Numbered from the stretch's first letter, positions 2,895-64,000 are shown. The stretch is 64,000 bases of DNA from Ginglymostoma cirratum (GCA_024137785.1 JAHRHZ010000012.1:64009344-64073343); one strand, 5' to 3'. Program-made: numbers and translations. The notes: generated by a model not told the origin, from the letters alone.

Positions 2895-3004
2895 AGTTTT
2901 CAGTTCTGAGGAAGGGTCACCAGACCTGAAACGTTAATTCTGTTTTTTTTTCCTTTCACAGATGCTGCCAGACCTGCTGAGCTTTTCCAGCAACTTTGTT
3001 TTTG
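2895..3004 (+). mobile_element. Short non-autonomous Penelope-related terminal element (family B) with a hammerhead core
   Basis: CTGAGGA-A-GGGTC-ACCA-GACCT-GAAAC-GTT followed by ...CACAGATGCTGCCAGACCTGCTGAGCTTTTCCAGCA. The same module occurs at 17445-17776, 36210-36355 and 43020-43450. Confidence 0.7.
2902..2939 (+). ncRNA. Minimal type I hammerhead ribozyme motif (putative)
   Basis: AGTT|CUGAGGA|A|GGGUC-ACCA-GACCU|GAAAC|GUU|AAUU: complete conserved core, 5-bp helix II, palindromic ACGU helix III, 4-bp helix I. Activity not shown. Confidence 0.6.
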
Positions 3005-4011
3005 ACAAGTTTTCACTTTCCTCTGGAATGTCATGCTCCAGACCCCATTCAAGACCCTGTGACTAAACAACTATCACCAGCTAAATCCATCAGCTGCTGG
3101 TCTTGGCTGGCTTGTGACTAGGAAACAACTATGAGAATATATTAATGAAATTTTACCAATTTATTTGCCAGGATTTTCAGATGTCTCCACTCTCCTACAA
3201 CTGCCCCCTCTGTGACCCTGTAAATACTCGACCCCAAGAATACAAGCTGCCCCACTAATGCAGAATAGCTGTTAGCAAAGACAACCATGTGTTGAATTCC
3301 ACACTGAAACAGTCAACCCATATCCGTGTGCTGTAGGTAGACCCACAATATCCTGAGGGAGAGAATTGTGTTGGGGTGCAAGGGAAGATTGGGACACTTG
3401 AACTTTTCGAGCTGTAAAGAGTCAGCTGAGGAGTTATCTTATTGAGGCTTACAAGAAATGAACTGATATGGAAAAGGTTAATTCAGAATGTTGCTTCAAA
3501 ATTAACAATGAGTATCATAAGGGATGAAGGTTCAAAACAAGTAGTGGTAACATTGAGAATGCTAGAAAGCTCCTCATTCGCAAAAACTGAGGAGCTATTT
3601 GGAATTTACTTGCAAGTAGCTTTATGCAGGTGAAAAAATCCTCACACCGTTAGGTACAGCAATGGGGGGAGTGAAGGGTTGTCGTGAATGGATGATTTAA
3701 GGTGAGTTAATTGGCAATTCTATATTGATAAGCTAGCAAACTGGATTTAAATGTGATTGTTTCTAATTTGGGAAACTAAATCTGTGGTAGGAGTATGTCC
3801 AGTGAGCAATCAAGTTTTGACACAATCTGAATAACTCAGCTATATCATGATACCTCGAAATATAAGAATAATTTGCTTCTATGATAATCTCCAATTTATA
3901 CAAAGGATAAATTTATATTTAAAATTGTGATCAATGATTGAACAATGTAAGTATAGAAAGCGCCCAAGATTAAATATTTAACATGCTTTATCCATGTTTT
4001 ATCCATATTTT

Positions 4012-4549
4012 AAGGCGTGGGGCTGGATGAACACAGCAGGCCAAGCAGCATCACAGGANNNNNNNNNNNNNNNNNNNNNNNNNNNNNNNNNNNNNNNNNN
4101 NNNNNNNNNNNNNNNNNNNNNNNNNNNNNNNNNNNNNNNNNNNNNNNNNNNNNNNNNNNNNNNNNNNNNNNNNNNNNNNNNNNNNNNNNNNNNNNNNNNN
4201 NNNNNNNNNNNNNNNNNNNNNNNNNNNNNNNNNNNNNNNNNNNNNNNNNNNNNNNNNNNNNNNNNNNNNNNNNNNNNNNNNNNNNNNNNNNNNNNNNNNN
4301 NNNNNNNNNNNNNNNNNNNNNNNNNNNNNNNNNNNNNNNNNNNNNNNNNNNNNNNNNNNNNNNNNNNNNNNNNNNNNNNNNNNNNNNNNNNNNNNNNNNN
4401 NNNNNNNNNNNNNNNNNNNNNNNNNNNNNNNNNNNNNNNNNNNNNNNNNNNNNNNNNNTCCTGTGATGCTGCTTGGCCTGCTGTGTTCATCCAGCCCCAC
4501 GCCTTGTTATCTCGGATTCTCCAGCATCTGCAGTACCTTTTATCTCATC
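4012..4549. mobile_element. Fold-back Penelope-terminal element (family A) spanning the assembly gap
   Basis: Perfect inverted arms 4012-4058 and 4459-4505, nearly identical to the PLE 3' end at 17779-17830. 15-bp direct repeat TTTTATCCATATTTT at 3997-4011 and 4550-4564. Confidence 0.8.
4059..4458. other. Assembly gap (400 N)
   Basis: Run of N. Confidence 1.
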
Positions 4550-5511
4550 TTTTATCCATATTTTGATTGATGCTGTATTTTGTCGCTGACATAAATGTCA
4601 TGCTATGCAGAGAGTTTAACATCAAACTTACCATCGTGGTCACTCATTTTATCTCGTCCTGTTATTGTTTCTTTTTTCAGCTATTTTGAAAGCAATAAGA
4701 AGAAAATAGTTTAGCCAATCTTTGGCAATCAGATTAACCAATGCAACATTACATCACTATGGGCATTGTATTGTATCAGATACTTAAACCTGCCTTTCTT
4801 TCCCCAGATCTCATGATAAAAGTAAGAGAAACGGTGTTGTCATTTCTAATTCAGTCAGTCACAATTCATTAGAAAGAACAAATCAAGATTAATTTTTTGT
4901 CAAATTGTTTGATTGAATCACTTAATTATTTCATTAAATTGGATTCAGAGCTTAATCTTAGTTTCCAATTATTTCTGAAATAATGGAAAAAACACTTCCC
5001 ATTTCTATCTGTATTGGGAGCAAGGAGAGAATGGTGAAAGGAGCTTACATTCTCAGAAGCATTTTTCAATATGAATAAGCTACAGTAAGTATTAACCTTT
5101 GACAGCAGTAGGAAAAAATCTAAATGCTTGGCATGATTCCTATGTTCCACAGACTGAGCAACATAAAAGCTAAAATATTCAGAATTCACAAATTATCTTT
5201 TTTTGTTAACTGAAACAATTAATGGAGGCATTTTTTAAAAGAAACATTGGCTGTTGCAAAACGATTCTCTTTTTTTCTTTGTTTAGGAACATGGGTGAAA
5301 TTTAATCGTGATGAAGAAGCAGGAAACAAAGCAAAAGGGGAACCTTCATTGGGTGATAGGCACCAAATTCCGAGATGAAATCTTAATTTGAAGTTGGTGG
5401 CAGTCAGTTTGGAGATAGAACAGGGTTCCTGACAGCAAATGCTGTGAACCTATTTGTAATGTATTAGTATGTTTTGAATGTTCATTAAAACACAAGTTCA
5501 CCAAATTAAAC

Positions 5512-5659
5512 GAGATAACAACGTGTAGAGCTGGATGAACACAGCAGGCCAAGAAGGCACAGCCTTCAGAAAGGGTCTAGGCCTAATACGTCAGCTTTCC
5601 TGCTCCTCTGATGCTGCTTGGCCTGCTGTGTTCATCCAGCTCCATACCTTGTTATCCCC
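5512..5659. mobile_element. Fold-back Penelope-terminal element (family A), 148 bp, 15-bp TSD
   Basis: Inverted arms GATAACAA..GCTGGATGAACACAGCAGGCCAAG / CTTGGCCTGCTGTGTTCATCCAGC..TTGTTATC. TSD TTCACCAAATTAAAC at 5497-5511 and 5660-5674. Hammerhead core degraded. Confidence 0.85.
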
Positions 5660-6749
5660 TTCACCAAATTAAACATTACCTTTGCAACTTAGTCAGAAGT
5701 GAACACAGGAAACATGCCTTCATGTTTTCACATTCTTGACTGGTTAAAGCTGGCATGCAGTAAGGTAGTCATTGTGATAGATTTGGAATGAGAAGGAGCT
5801 ATAAATCTCCTATAGGGAAGGGGACAGCACAAGGAGAAGAGGTTGGATTGCTTCCTTGAAATGTCAATTGAAGTCAGGTCCCGGCTGCCTGAGAGAGGAT
5901 GGGTCTTTATGGGCCTAAGGAAGAGGGTCCTGGTAGTTAATGGACAATGATTCCTGGGTGTCCAGGGATGGGATGATATTGACAGATAAGGAGGGCTGTG
6001 GCAAATAATAGATTGCTGGAGTGATTGTCAGTAGGTCAAAGATGAGATTGGGATTTAGCCCAGTCTGCATCTGACTGAAGCACACAACCAGAGTTTGACG
6101 GATATGGTTTTCAGCAAAAATGACATGTCTATAGAAACGCCTCAACTCTTCCTATGACAGTCTGGGTGATAATGTTATTTCAAGTGCAGAAACAGCCATA
6201 GTGACGGCATACTTACCTACGCTCAGGTGCTAGATCTAGTTCCATTCTCTTCAGCTTGCTTGTACTGTGTCACTGGAATCATAGGTGGCTCTGCGTCCTT
6301 TTATTAGTTACCTTAGAAACTGAAAGAGTCAGTTTACCTTCTCAGTTTCACTATTTCAATTCGGATCTGTTTTAAAAAGTACAAGCTTTGAAACCACAGA
6401 TTCCATCACAATGCCATCAGATTGTCCCAGGGTTCTATGGAGCCCATGTATGGTGTCTCATTGGTAGCCATTCATAGATGCACGAGGGAGTTTGCCAATG
6501 CCATGTTTTAAAGGGCTGGTTAGTGAGACTTATCACAGATCCCTGAGAGCCAGGTAGTCAGATCTTTGAGTCATTTGCAGTCTTCTCCCTAGTACAAGGA
6601 CTGATAGACTGCACAAATGTGACATCCTAAAAACAGCCAGAAGCTTTCATAAAATGAATTCACACATATTGACAGAATTCAACCTGTCTGTGATCACCAA
6701 GAATTAAGCTTGCAGATGTGTGTTTAATTCCCAGGACTTCAGGCACAGG

Positions 6750-7060: not shown

Positions 7061-7091
7061 GCCTTTTGCAGCTCTCTTGAGCTGTCTGTAC

Positions 7092-11237: not shown

Positions 11238-13308
11238 TAGAGTTCAAGGTCCATATGTTCCTGTGAGGGTAAAGGGCAAGGTTGGCAGCGGTTGGGAACC
11301 CTGGGTGACAAGAGATATTGAGGCTTTGACCAGAAAAAAAAGGAGGCATAACTCAGGAGCAGGCAGCTGGGATCAAGGAAATCCCTGGAGGTATATAGGG
11401 GATACAGGAGTTTGCTGAAGAAGGAAATCAGGAAGGCAAAAAGGGGGCACTAGGTAGCTTTGGCTGAGAAGATTAAGGTGAATCCAAAGAGATTCTTTAA
11501 GTACATTAAAGGAAAAAAAAACTACAGAGAGAATAGGACCCCTCAAGGACCAAAGTGGACATGTATGCGTGGAATCGAGGAGATAGGTGAGGTCCTCAAC
11601 GACTATTTCTTCTTTGTGTTTACTGTGCAGAAAGACATGAAGACTTGGGAACTTGGGGAAGTTAGTGGCGATATCTTGGGGACAGTCCATATCACAGTGG
11701 AGAAATCTTGGAAGTATTAGACAGTATGAAGATGGATAACTCACCTGGTCCTGATCAGATATGCCTAAGAACCCTGCAAGAAGCTAGAGAAGAAATTGCA
11801 GGAGCCGTGGCTGATATGTTTGCATTATCGTTAACCACGGGTGAGGTCCTGGAAGGCTGGAGGGTAGCAAGTATTGTGCCCTTATGCAAGAAGGGCTGCA
11901 TAGAAAAATGTGGAAATTATAGACCAGTAAGCTTAACATGTGTGGTAGGTAAGCTACTTGAGAAGATTCTGAGGGATAAAATATACGTGCATTAAGAAAG
12001 ACAGCATTTGATTAGGAGTAGTCAGCATGGCTTCGTGTGTAGGAGATCATGCCTCACAAATTTGTTAGAGTTCTTTGATTAAGAAACCAGGAAGGTTGAT
12101 GAGGACAGGATGGCAGAATTAGTCTATAAGGATTTCAGTAAGGCCTTTGATAAGGTTCCACATGGTAGGCTGCTCTGGAATGTTAGATCGCATGGAATCT
12201 AGGGAGAGTTGGCAAATTGGATACACAATTGATTTGATGGTAGGAAGCAGAGGTTAATAGTGGAAGGATGTTTGTCTGACTGGAGGCCTGTGATTAGTGG
12301 TGTGCCTCAGGGTTGATGCTGGGTCCATTGCTGCTTGTTATCTATATTAATGATTTGGATGAGAATGTACAAGGCATGATTAGTAAGTTTGCGAATGACA
12401 CTAAAATAGGCGGTATCGTGGACAGTGAGGAAGGTTATCAGAAATTGCAGCAGGATCTTGATCAGCTGGGGAAGTCGGCCAAGAAATGGCAAATGGAGTT
12501 TAATATAGATAAGTGTGAGGTGTTGCATTTTGTAAAGTCAAATCAAGATAAGAGATTCATGGTGAATGGTAGCGCCTTAAGGAGTGAAGTGGAACAGATG
12601 GACCTTGGAGTTCAGGTGCATGGATCTATGGTAGTAGAGTCACGTGCAGCCAGGGCAGTGAAGAAGGCTTTTGGCACACAGGCCTTTATCAGTCAGGGCA
12701 TCAAGTATAGCAGTTGGGAAGTTATGTTGCACAGGGAGTTGGTGAGGCCGCACTTGGAATATTGTGTTCAGTTTTGGACACCTTACTATGGGAAGGATGT
12801 TATTAAACTGGAAAGAGTACTGAAGAAATTTATAAGGATATTGTCAGGATTCAAGGGACTGAGTTATAGGGAGAGGTTGGACAAGCTAGGACCTTTTTCC
12901 TTAGAGTGAGGGAGACTGAAGGGGGATTTTAAAGAAGTGTATAAGAGCATGAGAAGCATGGATAGGGTGAATGCACTCAGTGTTTTTCCCAGAGTTGGAG
13001 AATCGAAGACTAGAGGGCATCAGTTTAAGGTAAGGTAGGAAAGAATACATGGAAACCTAAGCGCTAACTTTTTTACACAGAGGGTGGTACGCATATGGAA
13101 TAAGCTGCCAGCAGAAGTGATTAAGGCAGATACATTAACAACACTTAAAATGCACTTGGATGAATGCATGAGCAGGAAAGGTTTAGAAGGCTATGGGCGA
13201 AGTGCAGGGAAATAGGGTTAGATTGTATGTACATTTGGTCGGCATGGGCCAGTTGGGTTGAAGGGCCTGTCTCTGTGCTGTAGGACTCTATGACTGTATA
13301 ACTCTGTG
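11238..13308 (+). mobile_element. 5'-truncated CR1 (HER1-like) LINE, ORF2 pseudogene
   Basis: ORFs 11460-12909 give NPKRFFKYIKGK, SPGPDQI, GNYRPVSLTCVVGKLLE, LGPLLLVIYINDLD, KFANDTKIGG, LVRPHLEYCVQFW. 3' tail GAAGGGCCTGTCTCTGTGCTGTAGGACTCTATGACT. Confidence 0.92.
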
Positions 13309-16300: not shown

Positions 16301-17444
16301 ACTTTTTGCCACTAGGTCTGCAGCAAGAATTTTGACTGTGACACTGAGTTTTTTTCTTGTCAGGATCCTTCCAGGCTGGAACAGGTAACATACCCAATAT
16401 CTCCCAGTTTGTTCTCAATGCAGGAGCAGAAAGATGACAAATACTCTGAGACGATTTTATGGAATTGCGTCGGATTGGTGGAAGGAGGTGGACTACATGT
16501 GTAGTTTTGCAGGATAACAGGCTTCCTCATGGTGCAGGGTGCCATCAACTGTATATAGTCTATCCTGTACCTATTTTATGATTACATGATTCTATGCATT
16601 ACTTATCTAGCAGTTACCAGTTGTACAGGAATTTACAGTTGACATTAACAATATTATGATGATTTTGTTGTAATCACTGATCCTAGCTTTCATTCACCAA
16701 GTTACTCATCTAAAGTCATTGTTTGATTTACGATATTGTGCTGTAATCAGTAACAATGAATGTTCAGGCCAAGTCTGTACAAGTAAAATGCATAACCAAT
16801 TAGACACCTCACTCTTTCGTCACTGCATAAAATGGATACAATTGGCAATTGTAAGGCATATATTTAAACTAAATATTAACTACAAGTAGTCTGTGAAGAC
16901 ATAGTAAGCACATGTGCCTAATGCTAATCCAGAACAATACTATCATTTCTATTCATGGGTGGCTTAAATTATCCAATTGTATTTTAGATAATGTTATCCT
17001 AATTTAAACTTAAATGTGGATGAATCACTAGACCTTTGCTAACCAAAAGCACATGAAAAATAATGGCTGGGGAAATCTTAATTATTTCTTTCAATAAGCT
17101 AATCAGGTTGGAGACACTTCCTCAGAGAGTTATCTAAGTCAGATACATTCCAGTCAGAAGCATGGTACAGTTGCACCCCCATCAAACTCCCATAAAGGGT
17201 CCAGGACAAAAGTCCAATTACTCTACCACTGAACAGAATATAAAAAGCAGCAAAGAATGAGCAAAAAATTAATAAAGAGGTAAAAGTAACAGCATGGCAG
17301 AAAGCTAACCAGAAGTATGAAAACAGATAGTAAGAGTTTCTATTAATATTTAAAGAAGAGTTAACAAAAGAGCATTTGTCATTTTGAAAGTCAGACTGCA
17401 GACTTAGTAACGGAAAACATGGAGATGGTAGATGAAATAAACAA

Positions 17445-17776
17445 AAAACAGAAGTTGCTGGAAAAGCTCAATAGGTCTGGCAGCATCTGCGAAGAGAAGT
17501 CAGAGTTAACATTTCAGGACTAGTGACCCTCCCTCAGATGAGTCCATTCTGAGGAAGCGTCACTGGACTCAAAACATTAACTTTGTTTTCTCTCCATAGA
17601 TGCTGCCAGACCTGCTGAGCCTTTGCAGCAACTTATCATTTTGTTTCTGATTTACAGCATCTGCAGTACATTTGGTTTTTAAACAAAAATGAGAAATTGC
17701 TTGAGTAAATCAACAGGTCTGGCAGCATGTGGAGAGAAAACAAAGTTAATGTTTTGAGTCCAGTCACCCTTCCCAG
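17445..17776. mobile_element. Family-B fold-back element (17445-17680) plus an adjacent partial family-B copy (17681-17776)
   Basis: Inverted arms GTTGCTGGAAAAGCTCAATAGGTCTGGCAGCATCT / AGATGCTGCCAGACCTGCTGAGCCTTTGCAGCAAC around two decayed, oppositely oriented CTGAGG.. cores. Tail CAGCATCTGCAGTAC. Confidence 0.7.
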
Positions 17777-17836
17777 TTAACAAGGCGTGGGGCTGGATGA
17801 ACACAGCAGGCCAAGCAGCATCATAGGAGCAGGAAA

Positions 17837-17872
17837 ACTTGACGTTTCGGGCCTAGACCCTTCATCAGAAAT
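17837..17872 (-). ncRNA. Minimal type I hammerhead ribozyme motif in the PLE 3' end
   Basis: Minus strand reads AUUU|CUGAUGA|A|GGGU-CUAG-GCCC|GAAAC|GUC|AAGU, with all conserved core positions present. Penelope-like elements are known to encode minimal hammerheads. Confidence 0.75.
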
Positions 17873-18170
17873 GGGGGAGGGGAAGAGGGTTCTGAAATAA
17901 ATAGGGAGAGAGGGGGAGGCGGATAGAGGATGGATAGAGGAGAGGATAGGTGGAGAGGAGGCAGACAGGTCGAAGAGGCGGGGATGGAGCCAGTAAAGGT
18001 GAGTGTAGATGGGGGGGTAGGGAGGAGATAGGTCAGTCCAGGGAGGACGGACAGGTCAAGGGGGCGGGATGATGTTAGTAGATAGGAGATGGGTGTGGGG
18101 TTTGAGGTGGGAGGAGGGGATAGGTGAGAGGAAGAACAGGTTAGGGAGCTGGAGATGAGCTGGGCTGGTT

Positions 18171-19883
18171 TTAGGATGCGGTTGGGGGAGGGGAGATTTC
18201 GAAACTTGTGAAATCCACATTGATGCCATTGGGCTGCAGGGTTCCCAGGCTGAATATGATTTGTTGTTCCTGCTGCCTTCGGGTGGCATCACTGTGGCAT
18301 TGCAGGAGGCCCAGGATGGATGTGTCGTCTGAGGAATGGGAGGGGGAGTTGAAATGGTTTGCGACTGGGAGATGCAGTTGTTTGTTGCAAACTGAGCGCA
18401 GGTGTTCTACAAAGTGGTCCCCAAGCCTCCGCTTGGTTTCCCCGATGTAGAGGAAGCCACAACGGGTACAGCGGATGCAGTATACCACATTGGCAGATGT
18501 GCAGGTGAACATCTGCCTGATGTGGAAAGTCTTCTTGGGGCCTGGGATTGGGGTGAGGGAGGAGGTGTGGGGGCAGGTGTAGCACTTCCTGCGGTTGCAG
18601 GGAAAAGTGCCGGGTGTGGTGGGGCTGGAGGGGAGTGTGGAGCGGACAAGGGAGTCGCGGAGGGAGTGGTCCCTCCGGAAGGCAGATAAGGGTGGGGAGG
18701 GAAAGATGTCTTTGGTGGTGGGGTCTGATTGCAGATGGCAGAAGTGTCGGAGGATGATGCGTTGGATCCGGAGTTTGGTGGGGTGGTACGTGAGGAAGAG
18801 GGGGATTCTTTTTTGGTTATTATTGAGGGGACGGGGCGTGAGGGATGTGTTACGGGAAATGCGGGAGACACGGTCGAGGGCGTTCTCGACCACTGCGGGG
18901 GGGAAGTTGCGGTCCCTGAAGAATGAGGACACCTGAGATGTACGGGAGTGGAATGTCTCATCCTGGGAGCAGATGCAGTGGAGGCGAAGGAATTGGGAAT
19001 AGGGGATGGCATTTTTGCAGGAAGGTGGGTGGGAGGAGGTGTATTCCAGGTAGCTGTGGGAGTCAGTGGGCTTGAAATGGACATCGGTTTCTAGGTGGTT
19101 ACCCGAGATGGAGACAGAGAGGTCCAGGAAGGAGAGAGAAGTGTTGGAGATGGTCCAGGTGAACTTCAGGTTGGGGTAGAAGGTGTTGGTGAAGTGGATG
19201 AACTGTTCGAGCTCCTCGTGGGAGCACGAGGCGGCGCCGATGCAGTCATCAATGTAACGGAGAAAGAGGTGGGGTTTAGGGCCAGTGTAGGTACGGAAGA
19301 GGGATTGTTCCACGTAACCTACAAAGAGGCAGGCATAGCTTGGGCCCATGCGGGTACCCATGGCCACACCATTTGTCTGTAGGAATTGGGAGGAATTGAA
19401 AGAGAAGTTGTTGAGGGTGAGGACGAGTTCGGCTAAGTGGATGAGGGTGTCGGTGGAGGGGGATTGGTCAGTTCTGCTGGACAGGAAGAAGCGGAGGGCC
19501 TTTAGGCCATCTGCATGGGGAATACAGGTGTATAGGGACTGGACGTCCATGGTAAAAATGAGTTGATGGGGACCGGGGAATTGGAAGTTCTGGAGGAAGT
19601 GGAGGGCGTGGGTGGTGTCATGGAGGTAGGTAGGGAGTTCCTGGACCAAGGGGGTGAAAATGGAGTCTAGGTAGGTGGAGATGAGTTCGGTGGGGCAGGA
19701 GCAGGCGGAGATAATGGGTCGACCAGGGCAGTCAGGTTTGTGGATTTTGGGAAGGAGATAGAAGCAGGCGGTGCAGGGTTGGGGAACGATGAGGTTGGAG
19801 GCGGTGGGTGGGAGGTCACCTGAGGTGATGAGGTTGTGGAAGGTTTGGGAGATGATGGTTTGGTGCTCGGGGGTGGGGTCATG
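18171..19883 (-). CDS. Penelope-like reverse transcriptase / GIY-YIG endonuclease, N-terminally truncated
   Basis: YLLPKIHK..PGRPIIS, FTMDVQSLYTCIP, GVAMGTRMGPSYA, LRYIDD, FLDL, Cys linker CNRRKCYTC..FTC, VVYCIRCTRCGFLYIGET..EH..NH..E..GIN. The first ~29 aa of track ORF 18171-19970 lie outside the element. Confidence 0.9.
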   Translation of the reverse strand, partial: HDPTPEHQTIISQTFHNLITSGDLPPTASNLIVPQPCTACFYLLPKIHKPDCPGRPIISACSCPTELISTYLDSIFTPLVQELPTYLHDTTHALHFLQNFQFPGPHQLIFTMDVQSLYTCIPHADGLKALRFFLSSRTDQSPSTDTLIHLAELVLTLNNFSFNSSQFLQTNGVAMGTRMGPSYACLFVGYVEQSLFRTYTGPKPHLFLRYIDDCIGAASCSHEELEQFIHFTNTFYPNLKFTWTISNTSLSFLDLSVSISGNHLETDVHFKPTDSHSYLEYTSSHPPSCKNAIPYSQFLRLHCICSQDETFHSRTSQVSSFFRDRNFPPAVVENALDRVSRISRNTSLTPRPLNNNQKRIPLFLTYHPTKLRIQRIILRHFCHLQSDPTTKDIFPSPPLSAFRRDHSLRDSLVRSTLPSSPTTPGTFPCNRRKCYTCPHTSSLTPIPGPKKTFHIRQMFTCTSANVVYCIRCTRCGFLYIGETKRRLGDHFVEHLRSVCNKQLHLPVANHFNSPSHSSDDTSILGLLQCHSDATRRQQEQQIIFSLGTLQPNGINVDFTSFEISPPPTAS

Positions 19884-20879
19884 TTCCCAGTTCTTTGTTT
19901 CAGTTGAGATGGTGTACGATTTGAACGGGTATTTTGTTTTGATCTTCACCATAGAAAATAAAACTAACATCCCTGAAATCAGGAATTAGAAGAGAGGAAG
20001 GAACTCAGAAAAATTGCAGACACCAGAGATATGGTACTGAGTAAACTGTTGGAGCTGCATTCTTACAAGTGTTTGGGATCTGATGGAGTTCAACACAGGG
20101 TTTTACAAAAAATTGCTATCGAGAAAGTTGATGCAATGGTATTCATTTTCCAAAATTTCCTTGATTCAGTAACTGCACCATTAAATGTGAAAATAGCAAA
20201 TGTAACTCCTTTATTCAAAAACAGAGGAGATAGAAATCAGGAAACTACAGGTCTGATATCATGGAGGAAATGTTAAAAGCTGTTATCTAAAAAAGCAATG
20301 TGGCGCATGGATAAGTTTAAGGTAATCAAACAGAGTCAACATGGCTTTGTGAAAGGGAAATCATATTTGACTAATTTAATAATGTTTTTGAGTAGGCAAT
20401 GTGAACCAATGGAAGCATCGTGTTTAGAATTCCAGAAGTCATTTGATAAGGCACCACATCAAAGGTTATTGTAAACAGTGAAAAGTAGAGGGAAGCATAA
20501 AAGACAGAGGATAAAAGATTAGCTGGCTAATAGAAAGCAGAGAGTAGGTGTTAGAGTCTTTTATGGGTTGACAAGGTGTAACATGTGGTGTACCATAGGG
20601 ATTGATACTGAGATCTCATGTGTTTACAATTTTTACAAATAATTTAGATGAAGGGAAGAAAAGTATGGTTGCAAAATTTGCAGGCAGAACAAACATAGGT
20701 AGGATGGTAAGTTGTGAATAGGGCACAAGAAGGTTATAAAAAGTTATTGACAGGTTGTATGATTGGGCAAAGATGTGGCAAATGGAAGTATAATGTGGAA
20801 AATGTGAAAACGTCCATTTTGGCAGGAAGAATTTTTTTAAAAAAGCATATGGTCTAATTGTGCTGAAAACCTGATCAAG

Positions 20880-22850: not shown

Positions 22851-22998
22851 TGAGATCTTTCTCAATGGTGGGAGCAACATATCCCATTTTCTAATTAGGT
22901 TCCCCATGTTGAGATGAGATTCTTTGTATTGAGCAGCAAGAGGCACATTAATGGGGATTATTGCTCATTCTCATCCTCATTATTAATTTATCTCACAT

Positions 22999-23006
22999 CA
23001 CACACA

Positions 23007-23037
<31 letters not shown>
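22999..23037. repeat. (CA)n microsatellite
   Basis: Seen directly. Confidence 0.95.
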
Positions 23038-23040
<3 letters not shown>

Positions 23041-23119
23041 CCTAATCTATCAACCGCCAGATAAAAACCAGACACTAGGAATTCTTGACATGAAAGTGGT
23101 GCATTTGAAGAACATGCAG

Positions 23120-23126
<7 letters not shown>

Positions 23127-23189
<63 letters not shown>

Positions 23190-23206
23190 ATCTTTGTGTG
23201 TGTGTT
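23127..23206. repeat. Compound (TG)n(TCTG)n microsatellite
   Basis: Seen directly. Confidence 0.95.
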
Positions 23207-23929
23207 GCATGAGCTGGTCACAAGTGATGTTGGCTCATGCAAAGTGATGTTGGCTCTTTGCAAAATGAAGGTATACTTCACAGAGATGTCTAAGTAATCA
23301 CAGGCGATCTTAAAAGAGGCACCAGTTGGCCACAATGCACACAGCTAATGCAAGACTTCCCGCCTGCACAGGGCCATGGAAATTATTCCCTCTCAACCTG
23401 AACTATAAGTATAATGCAAGACTCTTATATGTCTTCTGTGATGTGGGGTTGGGAGGAGAATGGGTTCAATGCTCATGCAGCAGTTACACTTTCCCATATG
23501 TCTTTCCCACATGACTGCTGATGCATTCATCAAAATAAAACCCAAGGTAACACATCAAGATGAGTCAATCCGTGGTCCTCCTTGTCTGATTGGTCTGTAC
23601 GGTGGGGTATGTAAAATTGTCACTTGAACATAATGTGAATGGATCTGTTCTGTTTCTTCTGCTCCTCACACAGATTCATTGCAAGCATGACTTATGGGCG
23701 CAGCCACAACACAGATTATTGTCACTGTTGCTGTAAGGCAACAAAAACACAGGGAAATTGAAGAAGATGTGCCAGGAAGTATAGGACCAGCAGCAATCTT
23801 GAGCAGACTTGGAATGGCCTCCACAAAGAGGTTACAGCTGTATGGTCCTTTGGGATACACAGTAGACAAAACATGGCCAATGCTTTTGTTCTTGATGCCA
23901 TTTCCTATGGACGAGAGAGGTGTAGAGTT

Positions 23930-27447: not shown

Positions 27448-29954
27448 TTGTACTATAGAAACTGCAATAGTCAGTGGGAAATTGGGAAACAAATTTGTAA
27501 GGAGATCTCAGTTATCTTTAAGAATAATAGGGTTGTTATGATAGGGGATTTTACCTTTCCAAACTTAGACTGAGACTGCCATAGTGCTTAGGGCTTGGAT
27601 GGATAAGAATTTGTTAAGTTTGTACAAAAATATTTTCTGGTTCTGGTAGGCGGATGTACCTACCAGAGAAGATGCAAAACTTGACCTACTCTTGGGAAAT
27701 AAGGCAAGGCAGGTGACTGAGGTGTCAGTGGGGGAGCACTTTGGGGCCATTGAGCATAATTCCATTAGTTTTAAAAAAGTGATGGAAAAGGATAGACGGG
27801 ATCTAAAAGTTAAAGTTCTACATTGGAGGAAGGTCAATGACGGTGCTAGACAAGAACTTTCCAAAGTTGAGGACTGGGGACGGATGTTCACAGGAAAAGG
27901 GGCAGCTGGGAAATAAGAAGCCTTCAAAAATGAGATGACGAGAGCCCAGAGATAGTACTTTCCTGTTAGGGCGAAGGGTGAGGCTGATAGTTGTAGGGAT
28001 TGCTGGATGAATAGAGAAATTGAGGTTTTAGTCAAGAATAAGAAAGAGGCATATGTCAGGATAGACAGGAGGGGTTGAGTGAATCCTTAGAAGTGTGTAA
28101 TGACAGTAGGAATATACTTAAGAGGGAAATCAGGAGGGCAAAAAGGGAACGTGACATAGCTTTGGCAAATAGGGTTAATGAGAATCGAAAGGGATTCTAC
28201 AAATACATTCAAAGATAAAAGGGTAACTAGGGAGAGAATAGGGTCCCTTAAAGACCAGCAAGGCCACCTATGTGTGGAACTGGAAGAGATACTAAACGAG
28301 TATCTTGCATCAGTGTTTACTGTGGAGAAGGAAATGGAAGATAGAGAATGTGGGGAAATAAATTGCGACTTCTTGAAAAGTGTCCATATTAGAGAGGAGG
28401 AGGTGTAGACATCTGATGATGCATAAAGGTGGATAAATCCCCAGGTTCTGATCAGGTGCGCCCTAGAGCTCTGTGGGAAGCTAGGGAAGAGATTTCTGGG
28501 CCCCTTGCTGAGATATTTGTATCATTGATAGCCACAGGTGAAGTGCTGGAAGACTGGAGGTTGGCTACCGTGGTGCCACTATTTAAGAAAGGTGGTAAGG
28601 AAACGCCCCGGAACTTTAGATTGATAAGCCTGACTTCAGCGGTGGGCAAGTTGTTAGAGGGAATCCTGAGGGACAGGATTTATATGTATTTGGAAAGGCA
28701 AGAACTGATTATGGATAGTTAACATGGATTTATGAGTGGGAAATCATGTCTCACTGACTTTCTTGAGGATTTTGAAGAAGTAATAAAGAGGATTGTTGAG
28801 GGCAGAGTGGTGGATGTGATCTATATGAACTTCTATAAGGCATTCGACAAGGTTTCTCATGGCAGCCTGGTTAGCAAGGTTAGATCACATGGAATACAGG
28901 GAGAACTAGCCATTTGGATACAGAACTGCCTCAAAGTTAGAAGACAGAAGGTGGTGGTGGAGTGTTGTTCTTCAGGCTGGAGGCTTGTGACCAGAGGTGT
29001 GCCACAAGGATTGATGCTGGATCCACTGCTTTTTGTCATTTATGTAAATAATTTGAATGAGAACATCGGAGGTACGGTTAGTAAGTTTGCAGATGACACC
29101 AAAATTGGAGGTGTAGTGGACAGCAAAGAAGGTACCTCAGCGTACAACGGGACCTTGATCAGGTGGGACAACAGGCCGAGGAGTGGCAGATGGAATTTAA
29201 TTTAGATAAATGTGAGGTGCTGCATTTTGGAAAGGCAAATCAGGGCAGGACATATACACTTAATGGTAAGGTCCTGGGGTGTGTTGCTGAACAAAGAGAC
29301 CTTGGAGTACAAGTGCATTGTTCCTTGAAAATGGAGGCACAGGTAGGAACGTAAATAAAGTATTTGGTACGCTTGCCTTTATTGGTCAGTGCACTGAGTA
29401 TAGGAGATGGGAGGTCATGTTGCGGCTGTACAGGATCATGGTTAGGCCATTTTTGGAATACTGCATGCAATTCTGATTTCCCTGCTACATGAAAGATGTT
29501 GTGAAACTTGAAAGAGTTCAGAAAAGATTTACAAGAATGTTCCAGCTTTGGAGGGCTTGAGCTGTCAGGAAAGGATGAATAGGCTGGGGCTATTTTCCCT
29601 GGTGCATCAGAGGCTGAGGATTATCGAGGTTTATAAATCCATAAGGAGCCTTGATAGGGTGAATAACCAAGGCCTTTTCCCTGTGGTGTGGGTGTCCAAA
29701 ACCAGAGGGCATTGGATTAAGATGAGAGGAGACAGATTTAAAAGGGGCCAACACTTTCATACAGAGGGTAGTGCTTGTATAAAATGAGCTGCCTGAGGAA
29801 GTGGTGGTGGCTGGTACATTTAAAAGGTATCTGGATGTGTATATGAATAAGAAGAGTTTACAGTGATACAGGCCAAATGCTGGCAAGTGGGACTAGAAAA
29901 CTTTAGGCTATCTGGTCGGCATGGACGAGTTGGGCCAAAGGGTCTGCTTCCGTA
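27448..29954 (+). mobile_element. 5'-truncated CR1 (HER1-like) LINE, ORF2 pseudogene (end of endonuclease + RT)
   Basis: IGDFT(F)P, LDLLLGN, DKSPGSDQV, FRLISLTSAVGK, FYKAFDKVSH, GVPQGLMLDPLLF, SKFADDTKIGG. 3' tail GGTCGGCATGGACGAGTTGGGCCAAAGGG. Confidence 0.92.
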
Positions 29955-31911: not shown

Positions 31912-32073
31912 AGAGATAACAAGGTGTAGAGCTGGATGAACACAACAGGCCAAGCAGCATCAGAGGAGCAGGAAAGCTGACATTTCGGGTCTGGACCCTT
32001 CTTCAGAAAGGGTTCATCCAGCTCTACACCTTGTTATCTCAGATTCTCCAGCATCGGTAGTTCCTACTATCCC
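31912..32073. mobile_element. Fold-back Penelope-terminal element (family A), 162 bp, 13-bp TSD
   Basis: Inverted arms GAGATAACAAGGTGTAGAGCTGGATGAAC / GTTCATCCAGCTCTACACCTTGTTATCTC. TSD TTAGTGAACTATA at 31899-31911 and 32074-32086. Minus-strand CUGAAGA-A-GGGU-CCAG-ACCC-GAAAU-GUC at 31979-32006. Confidence 0.88.
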
Positions 32074-33407: not shown

Positions 33408-35527
33408 GTAAGCACTAGTAGTTTCTATTCCAGCCTTGTTTTGATTTGTATCCAAACCTATTAAAATGCTGGCAGGGTTTAGTTTCTTCTTTTCTGATGC
33501 TTTAATTTTTGCCCTATTGCCACTTGCAAGGGTGTTATCTTAATTAAGTTTGAAATTGATTGTTTCTTAGAGGGAATTGTTTAAAAAATCTATTTCAACT
33601 CTGCTGTGTACTTTTACTGCATGCTGAAGTGATTTGTGGATTTTTCTGTGAACTCAATCTTTGGTTATTTGAGACTGGTCTGTTTGAATGTTCAGTCGAA
33701 AACTGGATTCCTGCAATGAAGAGTGATATAATGATAACTGTTTTGGGGTGGAATGAGGAATGTTGTATGACAAGTTTGTTTTTTGAAAGCCTATTCATTG
33801 AATCTGTACTTAACTCTTTATTTGGATTCAATTCCTGGACTTGAGCTCCTTCAATGCTGTGCTGAAAGAAACCTTTTTCTCATAGAAGGGTGTTTGGCTC
33901 TCGAGCTAGAAGCAGTAACTAAAGCATCCTCTGTTTCAGATCTGCTGGGTTGGTTTGAACAGCTGGCTTGCTGTCTACACTGACTGAAGTAAACCATGGA
34001 ATCTTGTACAAAAAAAATGTTTTTATTACTGGTGAACTGGATCTCCTCCAGTTTAGTCTTCAACTTAAGTGTTTATGGAAGGTGGAATAGAAGTTTATTT
34101 GAAAGACATTTTCTTGTCTTAACATACTCAGTTGCTGCATGTTTTTGTGTCAGTGTGCAAGTTTACTGACCTCGGGCAATCAAGTGTAATTTTCAAGTTG
34201 ACTGACTTGTTTCTGCAGACTTTTTGTTTAATTCTATGAATTTTTAAGTCTCTTTCCTGCAAGATATACAGCCATAACTTGGGTGTTCCTCATTATACCT
34301 TCATCCCTCTGCATCAAAATTCAGGAACTCTAACTTAATAGCACTGTGGGAGTTTATCTATGACGCACTTTACAGCAGCAAAGGAACGCCTACTACCACG
34401 TCCTCAAGGACAATGGGGCTGTGTATTATAAGTCTGATTTTGCTTGCCATGCACTCTTGGGTGAGCTTTTCAAAAACAATAAATATTTTAATTTAATCTT
34501 GATGCTTAAAATATGTTAAGCAATATTTAGTTATGTTTTGACTTGTATTCAAGTCTACAGATAAATTGTAGAGATTGAGATACATGATTGATTCAGAAGA
34601 ATTTGTTTTAACAATGTAGTATATTGCAAAGCTTGTTTTAAATTGGGTCTAGTGATAAAAGCAGTTAGATGTGATATTAAATTGACAACTGAGGGCTTAC
34701 AAAGTGGTTAGCCATTGTGCATAATCATGCCTGATCTACTGTGACTCTACCTCCCCACTTTCTAATCCCCAGTCAACAAGAACAGCCTCTTTATTTTGAC
34801 TTCTAGAATGACAGAAAAGTTATGACACAAATAGGACATTCACCTTATGTCTGCACCCACTGAGTAAGCTTGACATCTATTTTAGCCTCACTTTCCAGCA
34901 CTTAGTCCCATAGACTTGTCGATGACAGTAGATCCAGGGTCCCTTTAAAATTGTTTTGCCTTGACCACAAAACTGGATGGTGAATTCTGGATATGCATCA
35001 TTCTCTGGCTGGGAATGTTGGTAGATGTAGAACCCAGAAGTGGAGTGTGCATATTTCAGAATGTTGCATGGCCAGAGGAGATTGCGAGCATGAGGCTACT
35101 GAGGAATTTAAAGTTGAAATGTTACTCAACTGGTAACTCCTGTAGATAATTATTCACAAAATGATGGTGAATGGGATTTAATGTGCTAAGACATGTAGCA
35201 GTGTTTTGAGTAATATTGAGTTTAAAGGAGCAATATATGAAGTAGACCATTGAGTCTTAAGTCTAGTCTACCATTTGACTAGATTAATATCATTTTCCTG
35301 CTCTATGCCTATAATCCCTTGATTTGGATAATTTCCCAAAACTATAATCCAAATTCATGAATGCATTTTAGAGCTTTCACAGCCCTCTAAGTCTGATAGT
35401 AGATCACTGTGTAACATTTGCTTTTGGGGCAGAGAAGCATGAAATGAGGATTTCAGCAGCAGATGAGGTAAGCAGTGCAGTATTAGAGGGGAAAGATGGT
35501 CTTGGTGACAAAAGTACGATTGCCTGT

Positions 35528-35651
35528 GATAGTAAGATGCTGGAGGAACACAGTACATCAAGCAGCATCAGAGGAGCAGGAAAGCTGGTGTTTTGGGTCA
35601 GGACCTTTAAGAAGGGTCCAGACCTGAAACGTTAGCTTTCCTGCTCCTCTA
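35528..35651. mobile_element. Fold-back family-A element in intron 1
   Basis: AGAGGAGCAGGAAAGCT..GGGTC / GACCTGAAACGTTAGCTTTCCTGCTCCTCT inverted arms. The hammerhead CUG is lost at the symmetry centre. Possible TSD ATTGCC(T/A)GT. Confidence 0.75.
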
Positions 35652-36209
35652 ATTGCCAGTTCATCTGTAAGAATTTCAGGTTACAAATTGACTAAACCAC
35701 ACTCACCAAGCAGAGTGATGGGGTTGATGAGGGAATGAAAGTTGTGTTCACCTGGTATTGGATGTTGAAGCAACCTATTTTAGACTGAGGAATGGCATGA
35801 GATGATTGAGGTAAGGGTAGGTGTTGTGTATCCATGGAATATGTACTTTCATTAAAAATGAGATCTCCAGAGATGAGGAAGGAACAAGCCATTGATTATT
35901 TCAATGTACTTTGCGCACATACAATACACTAATACAGTCCTATGGGGTAGAAAAGGTTAAAAATGTGCAACCCTTCAAGGAAACCAACTTTTTTAATCCA
36001 TCTTAAATGGTGGTTGACACATGCATGCCTTAAGCTTGTGACCCTGGTTCTAACTCTGCTAAAGGGGGGAGGGGGAGAGGGAACCATCTCTCCAGTGTCT
36101 ACCCTATTAAGCCCCTCTAGATTTCTTCATTTGAAGAATATTTTATGTAAAAGTGCATAGAAACTGTCCCTATAGGGACAATCCCTTAAATCCTGGAATA
36201 GCCCTAATA

Positions 36210-36355
36210 AACATGCTGGAGAAACTCAGCAGGTCAGGCATCCTTTGTGGAGGGAAAGAACAGTTTGTTTTGGGTCTGATATGGCTGTTCAGGGGTCTAT
36301 AGAAATCTTATTGGACTCATCAGTTTGAACATTGTCTATTCTACCTCCACAGATG
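36210..36355. mobile_element. Decayed family-B element
   Basis: TGCTGGAGAAACTCAGCAGGTCAGGCATC..GTGGAG / CTCCACAGATG. Confidence 0.5.
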
Positions 36356-43019: not shown

Positions 43020-43450
43020 TGAAACAAACTGGTGGAGAAACTCTGACCTGGCAGCATCTGTGGAGAGAAAACAGTTAATGTTTCAAGTCTAGTGACCCTT
43101 CAGGATTTTTCCTGACTCTCTTCCCAAGCCTAATTACATGGTTGGTTGGGAACTCATACCTCCTAAGGCCTTGTTTAAGTGCTTTGTGAACTTGATTAGA
43201 GATCAATATTTAAACAGTTCAGAAATGTTACATGTTTTGGAATCTAAACCCGGATTTCAATTTTTAATTGGACTGCAAAGAAACTCCATTATTCCCCTAA
43301 GCAAAGTTAATGTTTTCTCCTTGAGTTTTCCCTAAAGTTAACAGTAACCCTCATGAAGGGGCAGTAGACTCGACATTAACTCCTCTTTCTCTCCACAGAC
43401 GCTGCCAGACCTTTTGAGTTTCTCCAGCATCTGTAGTTCTGTTTGCTTTA
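43020..43450. mobile_element. Inverted pair of family-B arms (43020-43105 -, 43350-43450 +) separated by ~245 bp
   Basis: TGGCAGCATCTGTGGAGAGAAAACAGTTAATG versus CATTAACT..TTTCTCTCCACAGACGCTGCCA. Confidence 0.65.
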
Positions 43451-44736: not shown

Positions 44737-44830
44737 CTCCCTTCCCCCAGTGGACCAACAGTTACTCCATTTCCTAACTTTGATGCAAGTGCTGATGCTG
44801 CTGCTTTAAATAATGCACTCCAGGCAGAAG
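44737..44830 (+). CDS. ANXA1: Annexin exon 3 (LPSPSGPTVTPFPNFDASADAAALNNALQAE-G)
   Basis: Polypyrimidine + CAG acceptor, G|GTAAAC donor, phase 0 to 1. Start of annexin repeat 1. Confidence 0.9.
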
Positions 44831-44899
44831 GTAAACAAACTTCTTTCTTTTCTGGGGCAGAGTTATTTGTGTGCTTAAACAAGTAAAATCAAATGTCTG

Positions 44900-47848: not shown

Positions 47849-48705
47849 GTATAGTATTTTAATACTGAAGTACATGTTCAAAACAGCAACTTCAACAACA
47901 GCAATCTTTATTCAAAAGATTTCCATCTTTCTACTGGAACACTTTGCCTAGTACATCAATATGTATGTGGGCTAATGTTAACATGAAAAGTCCCACCCTC
48001 ACCTGAAGTGTGGTGACTTTTCAGTTAAACCATGGCCAGTTTAATCTCTAAGAATAGTGCTGTGTTTCTCTGGAACTATAGTGACAAACTTTTATTCTTG
48101 AAATGTGCTAAGCACCACTACTTAGGAAACTGCTCCCACTAAAATTGAGAAGTAAATGCCAACAAGACTAATGAGTACCGATACTCTCTTTTATGGTGCA
48201 GTCTTAAAATCTTGGCAAATAACAGAAATGGGAGTATCTTGGAACTGAATTTTCAAGCCTATTAAAACTTGAATGGGAGAAGGGCATGTCTATAATGGGT
48301 TTGCAGTTGCTTGCTGGGGATAGTTGACTCCCAGAGTATATTTGGGGTCTCTCTCATTGTATGTTAGACATCAACTGATGACGGTCAATCTTTGGGTATG
48401 AAAGGGGAAATAAACCGATGGAAATAACTCACTTGCATAGTAAGAACTGCTAATGCTGGAGTCAGATAACAATTATTCCTCCAAAGGATATTGAATACAA
48501 CAGCTTCAAAGTTTTGAACTTTGGTGCCAGACCCATTTGAGTCTTCTAGCACTGCTTTTATTTCAAATTGATTTTTCAGTATCTTAATGAACATAAAATA
48601 AGCTACCTAACTTATTTTGACTATATAAATTCTGGTGCCATTCAAGGCCTATATGTCTATGATAGCAAATATGACATGCATCAATTTAAATCTTCTCTAT
48701 TGCAG

Positions 48706-49460: not shown

Positions 49461-49477
49461 TATAATGGGTAAATGAA

Positions 49478-56616: not shown

Positions 56617-56654
56617 CTCTTGACCTGCTGTGTTCATCCAGCCCCATGCTTGTT
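56617..56654 (+). mobile_element. 38-bp extreme 3' tip of the Penelope-like element with a 13-bp TSD
   Basis: CTTGACCTGCTGTGTTCATCCAGCCCCATGCTTGTT flanked by ACCCAGGCAGATG at 56604-56616 and 56655-56667. Confidence 0.75.
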
Positions 56655-61049: not shown

Positions 61050-61292
61050 TGGAGTATTGGTATGGAGTGGGTCTCCTGGCAATGACAGCAGTGTCCAGAA
61101 CCAGGTCTTCTGGCAATGTCAGCAAAGTGGTAGCAGTAGTGGACTAAAACCCAAATGGGTTTTTCTGACCATTCTGTATGGAATTCCATTTTTCCCCATC
61201 TGCTGTGGCAGGATTCAAACATGGGTCCCCAGGACAATACTTGGGTCTCTGGATCAACAGCCTAGTCATAATATCACTAGGCATCAACTCCC
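61050..61292 (-). mobile_element. tRNA-derived SINE (27-365 family)
   Basis: Reverse complement of GCCTAGTGATATTATGACTAGGCT..ATCCAGAGACCCA..GTTTGAATCCTGCCACAGCAGATGG. Confidence 0.7.
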
Positions 61293-63927
61293 TAGTCCTT
61301 CTGATTGTGTGGGACCTACACCTTGTATCTTGATCTTTGCTAAATGTTCATATCTGTAGAAATTTTTACAAGCTGCTTTCTTTCCCCATTTGAAAGATGA
61401 ATATAAACTCTTAACCTCGATGAGACTTTGGTTTCTTAACTTAAATGTTTTATGCATGCATAGGAGACATACATAGTCAGATGTCATACTAAATTTTTAT
61501 TGTCAAAACCAGGTCTTCACTAGTCAAACAATTGACATAAATTCCTTAAATTTTCAATGAAAATTGTTACACACAGTATCTAAACATACAGAGACCATAT
61601 TACCCAATGTTCTCTCATTCATGTTTTGAGTCTCTTGCTTGAGCACCCTATTGTCCACTGAAGAATTCTGGCTGTAAATGCTGTCTTCACAAAGCTCCTC
61701 CTTCTGGGGACAGGGTTAGTGGTTAACAATATACATTCTGCTTGTCTGGTACCAGCAAACCTGAAAACATCTGAGTTTTTGGGTGTCTTCCAAGTTGTTC
61801 TGGTCTGGGTGCAATTCTAACTGTGGTAACTGCTACTAGGTACAACTATTGACATTCCTGTCTGCCACATTCTGATTACACAGCAGTTATTGGAAATGTC
61901 CCTTATCCTTTTCAAGGGAGGAGATGCACAAAAGCGTGCTGCTGATTTGCCTTTTACAAAATAACATCCCTGTGTAATTCTGCCCAGTGAGGCAAAACCC
62001 AGCTTTCCAGTCTACTGTTAAAGCAGAAATAAATGCTGGTGTCAGTAGTCTATTTGACTTGTTTTATACCATTTAGCTGCAAATTTTGAGGGACAGCAAG
62101 AATCTTGCTGCCCTGTTCTGATTTCATGTTTTCGTTTGAGTACCAAATTCTGATAGCATGTTAAAGATGGGCTGATCTTTTTGCTCTCCAACACCAGTAT
62201 AAGAATCTATATGACAATATGGTAGGCTTTTTGTCCCTTTTGAGTTGCAGGCTTGTGGTAATAAGTTCTGCACCTATAGATGGTGTCACAGGGCACTCTT
62301 TAGATTTTTTTTCACCAATTTGCAGGAAGACTGGTGAAATTGACTGGACACCAGTAAGTCATAATGTAGACTCTTTTCCCTTGTGCCTGTATTTTCTTCT
62401 CCTTTGCATCTGCCCTTTTAAGGACCATTTGGAACTCCGTTTTAATTGGACCCCAGCAACAGCCTATTTTTCTTTATTCCCTGTGTTCTTCAATATAAGT
62501 TGTGGTCTTTAGTTTTGGTGATTGTAACTTCAGCTCTGAACACTTGACAATTTGTCACATTGCTGTCACTTTTCTTAGTCTCTGGTGTCTGCCTATTTGC
62601 CAGTTTGTCTTTTTGTGGTTTTCCTCACATCTGCATGTTAGCCCATCTAATACATAAACCAAGATAATACTATAACATGAGGTCTGTTTTTCAACACTAG
62701 CTATTTACAGCATTGATTTCAGACTCTCGGTCTGGATTTTTTTGCTTACTGATTTTTTGGACATTACACAACTGACTCCTCCTACAGTAACTGAAAGCCA
62801 GGTCTCTCGAGTACAGGCCTGTGACCTGGAATTTAAGCCATAACTTTAACAAGGAGCCTAATTTGAGTCTTGAAACCAACGACTGAGTCTGTAGATGATT
62901 TCAGGCTGGTTCTGGGAAGAATGAATTCGGCCTTTTTCCTCTGAAGTCAGCTGTCTGGTTTTGAATATTTGACTACAGTGCTGACGGTGCAGTACAAGTA
63001 AATGCAGAATGGCAGTAGAAAGGGAAGTACCAAAGGCCTGGTCTTGCTATTTGTCACTCATGTGTTTTTGTTTTTTAATGTGCTTTGCCCATAGGCCCTG
63101 GGGAAAACACTTAATGAGAGAGGTCCGCTTGCAATTATAAACCTATCTTACCAACTGGCCAGTTAACAAAAGGTTCAAAACCTGAACCCTTTGGTGATTT
63201 AGGTTACATGACTGGTGTAGTTCCCCTTCTCAGATGGAATTTGTTGCCTGCACTGAGTCTAATGGCTTAAATAACATGGCTGGATATGTATGTTATGTCC
63301 TTTCCTTCCCTCCCCCAAATCCCACTTCTTACAAATTACAATGCTAGTAGAAATGTTATATAGATCTTCAGTCATCTGAAGCACTGCTTTTTGTCACCAT
63401 CTTATTGGTATTTTCAACTTTATTTTGACTTCAGCCTATTCCGTAGATTCTTTGTGCTATGAAAATAATTTTAAAACATACCTGACAAATTCTCTAACTT
63501 TCAGTGCAAGTGGGCCCTCCTGATGATCAATGTGCTTGGTATTAATGAAGTGGGTAGCTATTGATCAACTGTTTTGACATGTATAGAGTAGTCAACATCT
63601 GCTGCTCCCATTACCCTGGCCTTGAGGCTCATTAGTTCCAATATTCTGCACATATGCAAACTGCAGAAGATGAGTGCGTTCTTAAAAAGCTCCTTTTCAC
63701 ATACTCAGCTGATGTGTCCAAATCTGGTATCTACTTCTCAACTTGCCTTTTTTGTGGGGGGGAGGAAAAAGCCACTTTCAACTGAATATAATATCATAAG
63801 TCTATCATTATAAGAATGATAAATATAATTTGCTACTAAGCTACATCTAGCTGTATGAATCTCGGTGATCAACAGCTTAAACAACAAGCTAGCTTTTACA
63901 AAAACTACTTTAAAGGGATAGGTCACT

Positions 63928-64000
63928 TAGAGATAATAAGAACTGCTGATGCTGGAGTCAGAGGTGTGGAGCTGGAGGGGCACAGCAGACCAGGCAACGT
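63928..64000 (-). mobile_element. Terminal part of another family-A-like element, cut by the window end
   Basis: GAGATAATAAGAACTGCTGATGCTGGAGTC..GGTGTGGAGCTGGAGGGGCACAGCAG is the reverse complement of the arm plus tail seen at 4470-4546. Confidence 0.65.

Follow-up and report, generated by a model that had tools for sequence, protein, structure and literature searches.

Short fold-back insertions in a shark genome are reduced to the terminal module of a Penelope-like element

What are the short fold-back elements dispersed over a 64,000-nt stretch of the genome of the shark Ginglymostoma cirratum (GCA_024137785.1 JAHRHZ010000012.1:64009344-64073343, the whole of which is hereafter called the window), and how have they been formed? 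An earlier reading of the sequence (the original prediction) described ten of them as non-coding, hammerhead-bearing Penelope derivatives with long target-site duplications (TSDs), similar in appearance to miniature inverted-repeat transposable elements (MITEs), and proposed a retrozyme-like class whose palindromes would be generated by the ribozyme cut or by fold-back priming. The elements are real, and they behave like ordinary insertions of a Penelope-like element (PLE) reduced to its terminal module, being neither MITEs nor retrozymes as these are defined. By self-BLAST of the window and a profile search, all ten were recovered at or near the positions first assigned to them, with profile E values from 1e-29 to 4e-4. 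The weakest of these scores belongs to the copy at 63928, which is truncated by the window end; self-BLAST connects nine elements and matches only the tail of this copy. Short pieces amount to 11 in 63.6 kb of called bases, about 1 per 6 kb.

The predicted origin from a Penelope terminal module has been borne out by identity to the end of a PLE that codes for reverse transcriptase (RT) and GIY-YIG domains and has a TSD of its own. In the lines below, TSDs are compared with 2973 random boundary pairs of equal slop (longest repeat, 10 bp), hammerheads come from a relaxed minimal-hammerhead descriptor (null of 0.02 motifs per shuffled window), and arm positions are counted from C3 of the hammerhead core, set to 0.

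17779 to 19883, minus strand: 5'-truncated PLE with RT and C-terminal GIY-YIG, without inverted copy and without tail.
17770 to 17778 (left) and 19884 to 19892 (right), plus strand: 9-bp TSD of the PLE (null for at least 9 bp, 0.4%).
17837 to 17872, minus strand: intact minimal type I hammerhead motif of the PLE, with C3 at 17868 and the predicted cut after 17841.

The open reading frame (ORF) of this PLE is uninterrupted over 570 amino acids (19883-18174, stop at 18171-18173, minus strand), and its RVT_1 (E 1e-6) and GIY-YIG (E 0.013) matches both lie under the curated cut-offs. Its best protein matches are from whale shark (91%, P0001), zebra shark (85%) and bamboo shark (76%), which points to a carpet shark as the probable host. 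A CxxxxCxxC motif between RT and endonuclease suggests that it belongs to the Neptune clade as described in the consulted part of PMC8557442. The ORF is followed by a C/T-rich 3' untranslated region (UTR) of about 300 nt and then by the terminal module; at 17870-18170 (minus strand) the UTR has 78% C+T on the sense strand (236/301). The zebra shark protein P0002 reads through C-terminally into the same module. None of 120 homologous RT proteins begins with the module, so the ATG that it contains is only a putative start codon.

The terminal module is composed of the hammerhead, an arm of about 95 nt and an optional tail of about 33 nt, and the short elements consist only of this module, alone or head-to-head. 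Those of family A match the PLE 3' end, as had been proposed (46/47 for the 4012 arm, 84/94 for the 31912 arm and 73/81 for the right arm of 5512), and family A arms are 80-98% identical to that end.

4012 to 4549, unstranded: family A fold-back with a gap, arms 47/47 complementary, tail on the right side only, 15-bp TSD.
5512 to 5659, unstranded: family A fold-back without tail, hammerhead broken, 15-bp TSD.
31912 to 32073, unstranded: family A fold-back, tail on the short right arm, 13-bp TSD.
35526 to 35653, unstranded: older family A fold-back, left arm with a shortened tail, junction at +6/+5, right arm ending at +48.
56617 to 56654, plus strand: single family A arm of 38 bp, from about +50 to +89, without core and without inversion.
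63928 to 64000, minus strand: family A tail and arm start, cut off by the window end.
48437 to 48466, minus strand: tail-only family A fragment, 93% over 30 bp to 63933-63962, absent from the original prediction.

The stretch 4012-4549 does not stand as a complete element, given that 400 N (4059-4458) separate its 47-bp arms and that size, core and centre are not visible. In 5512, the left arm ends near +50 and is followed by filler and a core fragment, with the core junction at about 5563-5575. In 31912, a long left arm runs from +96 to -6 and bears the intact hammerhead on the minus strand (C3 32006), and the short right arm, which carries the tail, starts at +66. One-sided tails are found in 4012, 31912, 35526 (shortened) and the family B pair at 17444-17680; 5512, 56617 and the PLE have none, and no element has a tail on both arms. 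In the two whole elements that were folded, fold-back far exceeds chance (z of -9.8 and -11.4).

The predicted sharing of one core layout by families A and B has been confirmed by cross-family profile matches down to E 3e-8. It is this layout that ties family B to PLEs, the window holding no coding partner for it.

2901 to 3004, plus strand: single family B arm starting at about -5, whose minimal hammerhead is intact (C3 at 2906, cut predicted after 2935).
17444 to 17680, unstranded: family B head-to-head pair (17444-17538 minus, 17548-17642 plus) and B tail, both cores broken, 9 nt between.
17686 to 17776, minus strand: third arm of family B, which meets the second tail-to-tail and stops at the core, where the PLE has inserted.
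36206 to 36355, unstranded: degenerate fold-back of family B, in which the left arm is clear and the right one weak; no TSD.
43022 to 43441, unstranded: family B arms (43022-43102 minus, 43350-43441 plus), both ending at the core, no TSD.

The segment 17445-17776 had been taken for a single element; it does contain a fold-back pair, but as part of a three-arm composite adjoining the PLE. The head-to-head arms of this composite are 74% alike, compared with 82% between the second and third arms (95% over 44 nt). The likeness of the tail-to-tail arms at 17548-17642 and 17686-17776 may come from conversion, from two templates or from a 3' fold-back. The RT-coding PLE lies precisely where a family B arm ends on its core side, a position that could reflect chance or a preference for PLE-terminal targets. 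Likewise, 43020-43450 has opposed B arms, but they do not form a contiguous palindrome, since about 245 bp of other sequence lie between them. This spacer (43103-43349), which was perhaps inserted later into the centre of the palindrome, contains an 18-bp B-like stretch, has no significant TSD and has no strong match elsewhere in the window.

The hammerhead-bearing character attributed to the elements is restricted to a minority, as an intact minimal motif is present in only 2/10 (C3 2906, plus; 32006, minus) in addition to the PLE (17868, minus). The descriptor (CUGANGA/GAAA/UH core, base after A9, G10.1-C11.1, short helix I and palindromic helix III stub) is satisfied by the PLE, 2895 (with G-U at 10.1-11.1) and 31912, and is not matched by the other eight elements; the PLE motif has an unpaired base after A9, a 5-bp helix II and a palindromic 15.2-16.2. 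An Rfam scan returned no hammerhead family among 14 weak matches, which comprised only sub-threshold hairpin or small-RNA models, and minimum free energy folds of five isolated motifs gave no hammerhead fold and were no better than shuffles. There are no tandem head-to-tail hammerheads, the three intact motifs in 64 kb being at least 14 kb apart. The term retrozyme-like is not supported: tandem sense-strand hammerheads are lacking and 8/10 elements have no visible intact motif.

Exact TSDs had been claimed for four copies, and all four exceed the null maximum of 10 bp: 15 bp around 4012 (3997-4011/4550-4564) and around 5512 (5497-5511/5660-5674), and 13 bp around 31912 (31899-31911/32074-32086) and around the 56617 arm (56604-56616/56655-56667, with 5' microhomology). 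Together with the PLE, TSD length is variable (15, 15, 13, 13 and 9 bp), and a range of 13-15 bp holds for family A and not for family B (10 bp overlapping its own end, 8 bp, or none) or the PLE. In family B, the 2901 arm has a possible 8-bp TSD (2895-2902/3008-3015; null 1.2%) and the 10-bp repeat around the 17444-17680 pair is the one overlapping the end of B itself. Judged by random boundary pairs, no TSD above chance turned up at 36210, at 43020 or around the 43105 spacer. In 35526, a possible 6-bp TSD is not significant (null 14%).

Arm 5' ends are grouped around the leading edge of the hammerhead core, from about -6 to +10. In 7 of the 9 short elements with a visible 5' end, this end lies no more than about 10 nt from C3; of the remaining two, the degenerate 36210 is compatible with this position, and 56617 begins only near +50. 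Having 8/9 at the core gives p of about 4e-6 against a uniform 130-nt span, although the interval was picked once the data were known. The 3' ends of family A lie at +86 to +97 in seven arms (PLE included), at the tail end in four and at +48 in one; those of the short elements form two clusters about 35 nt apart, a parallel to the two tail-bounding RT start sites of the anole PLE discussed below. The predicted ribozyme cut lies after +27 in A and +29 in B. No window arm ends or starts there (+28/+30), and core-reaching arms retain helix II and GAAA, which leaves about 20-35 nt of sequence upstream of the cleavage site. The elements had also been described as mostly inverted repeats with the symmetry centre at or next to the core. 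The fold-backs are there, although 2895 and 56617 have one arm each and 63928 is cut off by the window end, and the junction is indeed at the core; the symmetry centre is not in 5512 and 31912, because their arms are unequal. Arm-to-arm identity is complete in 4012 (47/47) and 31912 (29/29), which fits one template or identical templates; the 5512 arms (38/42) differ at one site that is polymorphic between copies, and the discordance of the 17444 pair (74%) could be accounted for by conversion. For the PLE UTR, the rest of the window gave no significant match.

Copies of the module outside the window, all of family A, have been found in translated shark gene models. Three profile-based protein searches yielded 45 proteins, 30 of which contain a translated plus arm. 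An adjacent head-to-head minus arm is present in 8/30, ending from -5 to +3, with junction peptides that vary between copies; seven of these eight are confirmed whale shark gene models, and the eighth is P0132. In P0132, the plus arm resumes near the cleavage triplet after a deletion of helix II. None of the 30 has an upstream UTR match above the shuffled null (42 vs 41), while the read-through control P0002 scores 182. Short copies have mostly AAG in the core (as also 31912) where the two RT-coding copies have ATG, and ATG-type short copies exist too (P0153). The other 15/45 proteins were dropped for lack of a plus arm; several match an unrelated, LINE-like (long interspersed nuclear element) C-terminal part of one profile sequence. 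The module has open frames, so its copies leak into gene models: P0121-P0163 include many shark gene models with translated repeat copies as probable false exons, among them the RefSeq zebra shark isoform P0124.

On balance, we favour, with moderate confidence, the explanation that the elements are minimal PLE insertion products, formed repeatedly rather than from one master. The PLE RT/GIY-YIG protein would nick the target with a stagger of 6-15 nt, and reverse transcription would start inside an uncleaved RNA, at the arm end or at the tail end. If the RNA 5' end lay just before the core, the cDNA would run off after 100-130 nt. Its free end might then be joined to the target, giving a single arm; alternatively, it might be joined to a second cDNA primed from the opposite nick, or snap back on the quasi-palindrome across the core (CCCTT...AAGGG in family A), the ends being joined by microhomology (4-5 nt are offered by the core quasi-palindrome) or by the snap-back. 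Ribozyme cleavage would have no role in insertion, and family B would be the equivalent product of another, probably older, PLE family. In the anole PLE, two internal RT start sites define the tail, and both strands are nicked and extended; hammerhead cleavage is dispensable, uncleaved RNA being the in vitro insertion substrate with no reads ending at the cut, and the ORF starts within the hammerhead, according to the consulted sections of that report (PMC11167929). In the shark copies, the sequence upstream of the cut is retained, and cut RNA therefore cannot be the template. The tail on the shorter arm of 31912 excludes a single tail-primed snap-back and favours twin priming or a later deletion.

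Several points weigh against this explanation. The RNA 5' end just before the core has been deduced from the DNA sequence. Snap-back energy at -6 is -2.2 kcal/mol, equalled or bettered at 68/2084 PLE positions, and is thus so weak that the stop position needs another cause. The second arm of 35526, ending at +48, favours snap-back and not twin priming, which means that no single joining route serves all copies. Family B has no autonomous reference. Junctions differ among the B copies of the window, in keeping with repeated formation, but 5512 and 31912 share one junction word, and K stands in 16/17 informative external copies where both RT-coding copies have M (a count by eye). Besides, the external copies are spliced gene models read at codon resolution, the search profile favours plus arms that reach the core, and the reference arm ended at -6. 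Snap-back energy as the sole cause of the junctions was rejected: it is weak and there are stronger sites in the PLE body; the helix II hairpin (+8) has comparable energy, yet no junction in the window is centred there. The C/T-rich PLE UTR ends right where the short copies stop, and RT stalling there may be an alternative to an RNA 5' end.

The codon bias could be the mark of a dedicated non-autonomous lineage, a parasite of the PLE similar to short interspersed nuclear elements or retrozymes, in which transcripts of source genes made of the module alone would be mobilised in trans, with palindromes forming before or while they are copied. AAG in the short copies (16/17 external, and 31912) against ATG in the RT-coding ones could mark non-coding sources by loss of the start codon, as the anole ORF starts in the hammerhead; the density of 11 short pieces in 63.6 kb and the identical junction word in 5512 and 31912 point the same way. 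On the other hand, junctions vary among the window B copies and the eight external A copies, P0153 shows that ATG-type short copies exist, and the 4012 arm agrees with the PLE end at 46/47 positions. In addition, an older autonomous AAG subfamily would account for the bias, and with 0/120 RT homologues beginning with the module the ATG is a putative start codon only, so that we consider such a lineage doubtful. Less probable still is the collapse of longer PLE insertions with inverted 5' copies, in which deletions between short repeats would have removed the centres and spared the outer modules with their TSDs. Such a collapse would suit the unequal arms of 5512 and 31912, the unassembled centre of 4012 and the interrupted centre of 43020, and long inverted PLE structures have been published (PMC8557442, in part consulted); but collapse should leave variable amounts of UTR, and no significant UTR match appears elsewhere in the window or in the 30 external copies, while single arms (2895 and many external ones) begin at the same -3 to -6 boundary without a palindrome.

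The proposal that hammerhead cleavage makes the RNA end from which the palindrome forms is largely refuted, and we give it very little credence. The junctions do lie near the ribozyme, and the plus arm of P0132 resumes near the cleavage triplet; against this, no window arm starts from +28/+30 or ends at the cut, and 20-35 nt upstream of it, with helix II and GAAA, are kept. Moreover, minimal PLE hammerheads are reported to need dimers and to cleave poorly (PMC4209133, as far as the accessible text goes), and the anole substrate in vitro was uncleaved RNA, with no reads at the cut site in the consulted sections (PMC11167929). Finally, true MITEs of a DNA transposon that resembles the PLE end are the least credible of all. 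The elements are short and non-coding and have inverted ends, but their TSDs vary (15, 15, 13 and 13, with 9 in the PLE) where MITEs would have symmetric terminal inverted repeats and a short TSD of constant length; tails are one-sided, single arms have TSDs too, and the TSD-flanked two-arm copies are 87-98% identical to a retroelement end. Variable TSDs, asymmetric ends and this identity uphold the predicted retrotransposition as opposed to a DNA transposase.

The window holds other features. At 44743-44835 (plus strand), a short coding stretch is similar to the N-terminal region of annexin A1 (a weak match, with E 0.17 by phmmer against PDB), and the elements may lie in or near an annexin gene. 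Two degraded non-PLE LINE copies with RVT_1 matches, 67% alike, occupy 11258-13269 and 27960-29946, and further LINE fragments occur around 40, 49.5 and 57 kb. The inverted repeat at 22996-23207 is made of (CA)n and (TG)n/(TCTG)n microsatellites with about 90 bp between them.

If the window is typical, an extrapolation from 11 pieces in 64 kb to a genome of 3-4 Gb leads to hundreds of thousands of minimal products per shark genome. For annotation, this matters in that minimal copies resemble MITEs or microRNA hairpins and turn up as false exons in shark gene models. A bolder suggestion, which we hold to be rather unlikely, is that the elements are very high-copy shark PLE parasites, that is, short RNAs from helix I to the tail that have lost the start codon and are twin-primed by a dimeric PLE protein. 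If true, each fold-back would be the fossil of a twin-primed integration, sometimes of two different RNAs, and any full pair would readily supply a long hairpin RNA directed against the terminal module of the element itself. The origin of the inverted and tailed ends of Penelope insertions is an acknowledged open question (PMC8557442, in the part consulted), and tails, junctions, arm identities and TSDs could, by sequence comparison only, separate twin priming from snap-back and place the template 5' end in vivo.

Fold-back architecture has already been published for Penelope elements, and the comparisons that follow are with the consulted parts of each source (PMC3846280, PMC8557442, PMC4209133). 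Insertions of endonuclease-bearing (EN+) PLEs have inverted 5' copies, one-sided tails, TSDs of 8-10 bp and junction palindromes, for which self-priming has been hypothesised (PMC3846280, PMC8557442), a pattern restated in PMC8969392, to which PMC5753468 and PMC7599744 contribute nothing further; inverted flanking repeats and an internal promoter have also been described (PMC2377424, Schostak et al., 2008). The shark elements share with them the 5' truncation, the head-to-head copy, the solo pseudo-long terminal repeats (pLTRs), the 30-40 bp tail at one end and the variable TSD (Arkhipova et al., 2013, PMC3846280; Craig et al., 2021, PMC8557442; PMC2377424). They differ in that no ORF is left, the arms are the module only, the total is 38-240 bp where size is visible, TSDs reach 13-15 bp, 5' ends are pinned at the hammerhead front edge and density is about 1 per 6 kb. 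Metazoan PLE hammerheads are mostly solo, and Schistosoma pairs on opposite strands 100-700 bp apart have been ascribed to truncated PLEs (Cervera and de la Pena, 2014, PMC4209133). The anatomy is the same (base after A9, short helix I, palindromic 15.2-16.2); however, sharks, junctions, tails and TSDs are not treated in the consulted part of that account, and here opposed cores abut or overlap. PLE expansion has been reported in whale shark introns (bioRxiv 443036). Retrozymes are tandem, derived from PLE pLTRs and carry a type I hammerhead, with one chondrichthyan case reported (Li, Clavereau and Pollet, 2026, bioRxiv 10.64898/2026.07.22.740005; PMC7229834). Like non-LTR retrozymes (Cervera and de la Pena, 2020, PMC7229834; Li et al.), the shark elements are non-coding, pLTR-derived and have long TSDs when present; but retrozymes are head-to-tail repeats with a hammerhead per unit, whose monomers are released and circularised, whereas the shark elements are single or inverted and their cores mostly broken. 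The anole Poseidon PAc (Frangieh et al., 2024, PMC11167929) has the same hammerhead layout and two RT start sites bounding the tail, although it is a different PLE and inverted mini-insertions are not treated in the consulted part of that paper. No account of module-only shark fold-backs or of core-pinned 5' ends was found in the literature searched, with Dfam, Repbase, most subscription journals and the supplements of Li et al. outside that search. The fixed 5' boundary at the hammerhead front edge, seen in two families and in a second record set, and the high density are possibly what is new in the shark elements with respect to the known systems.

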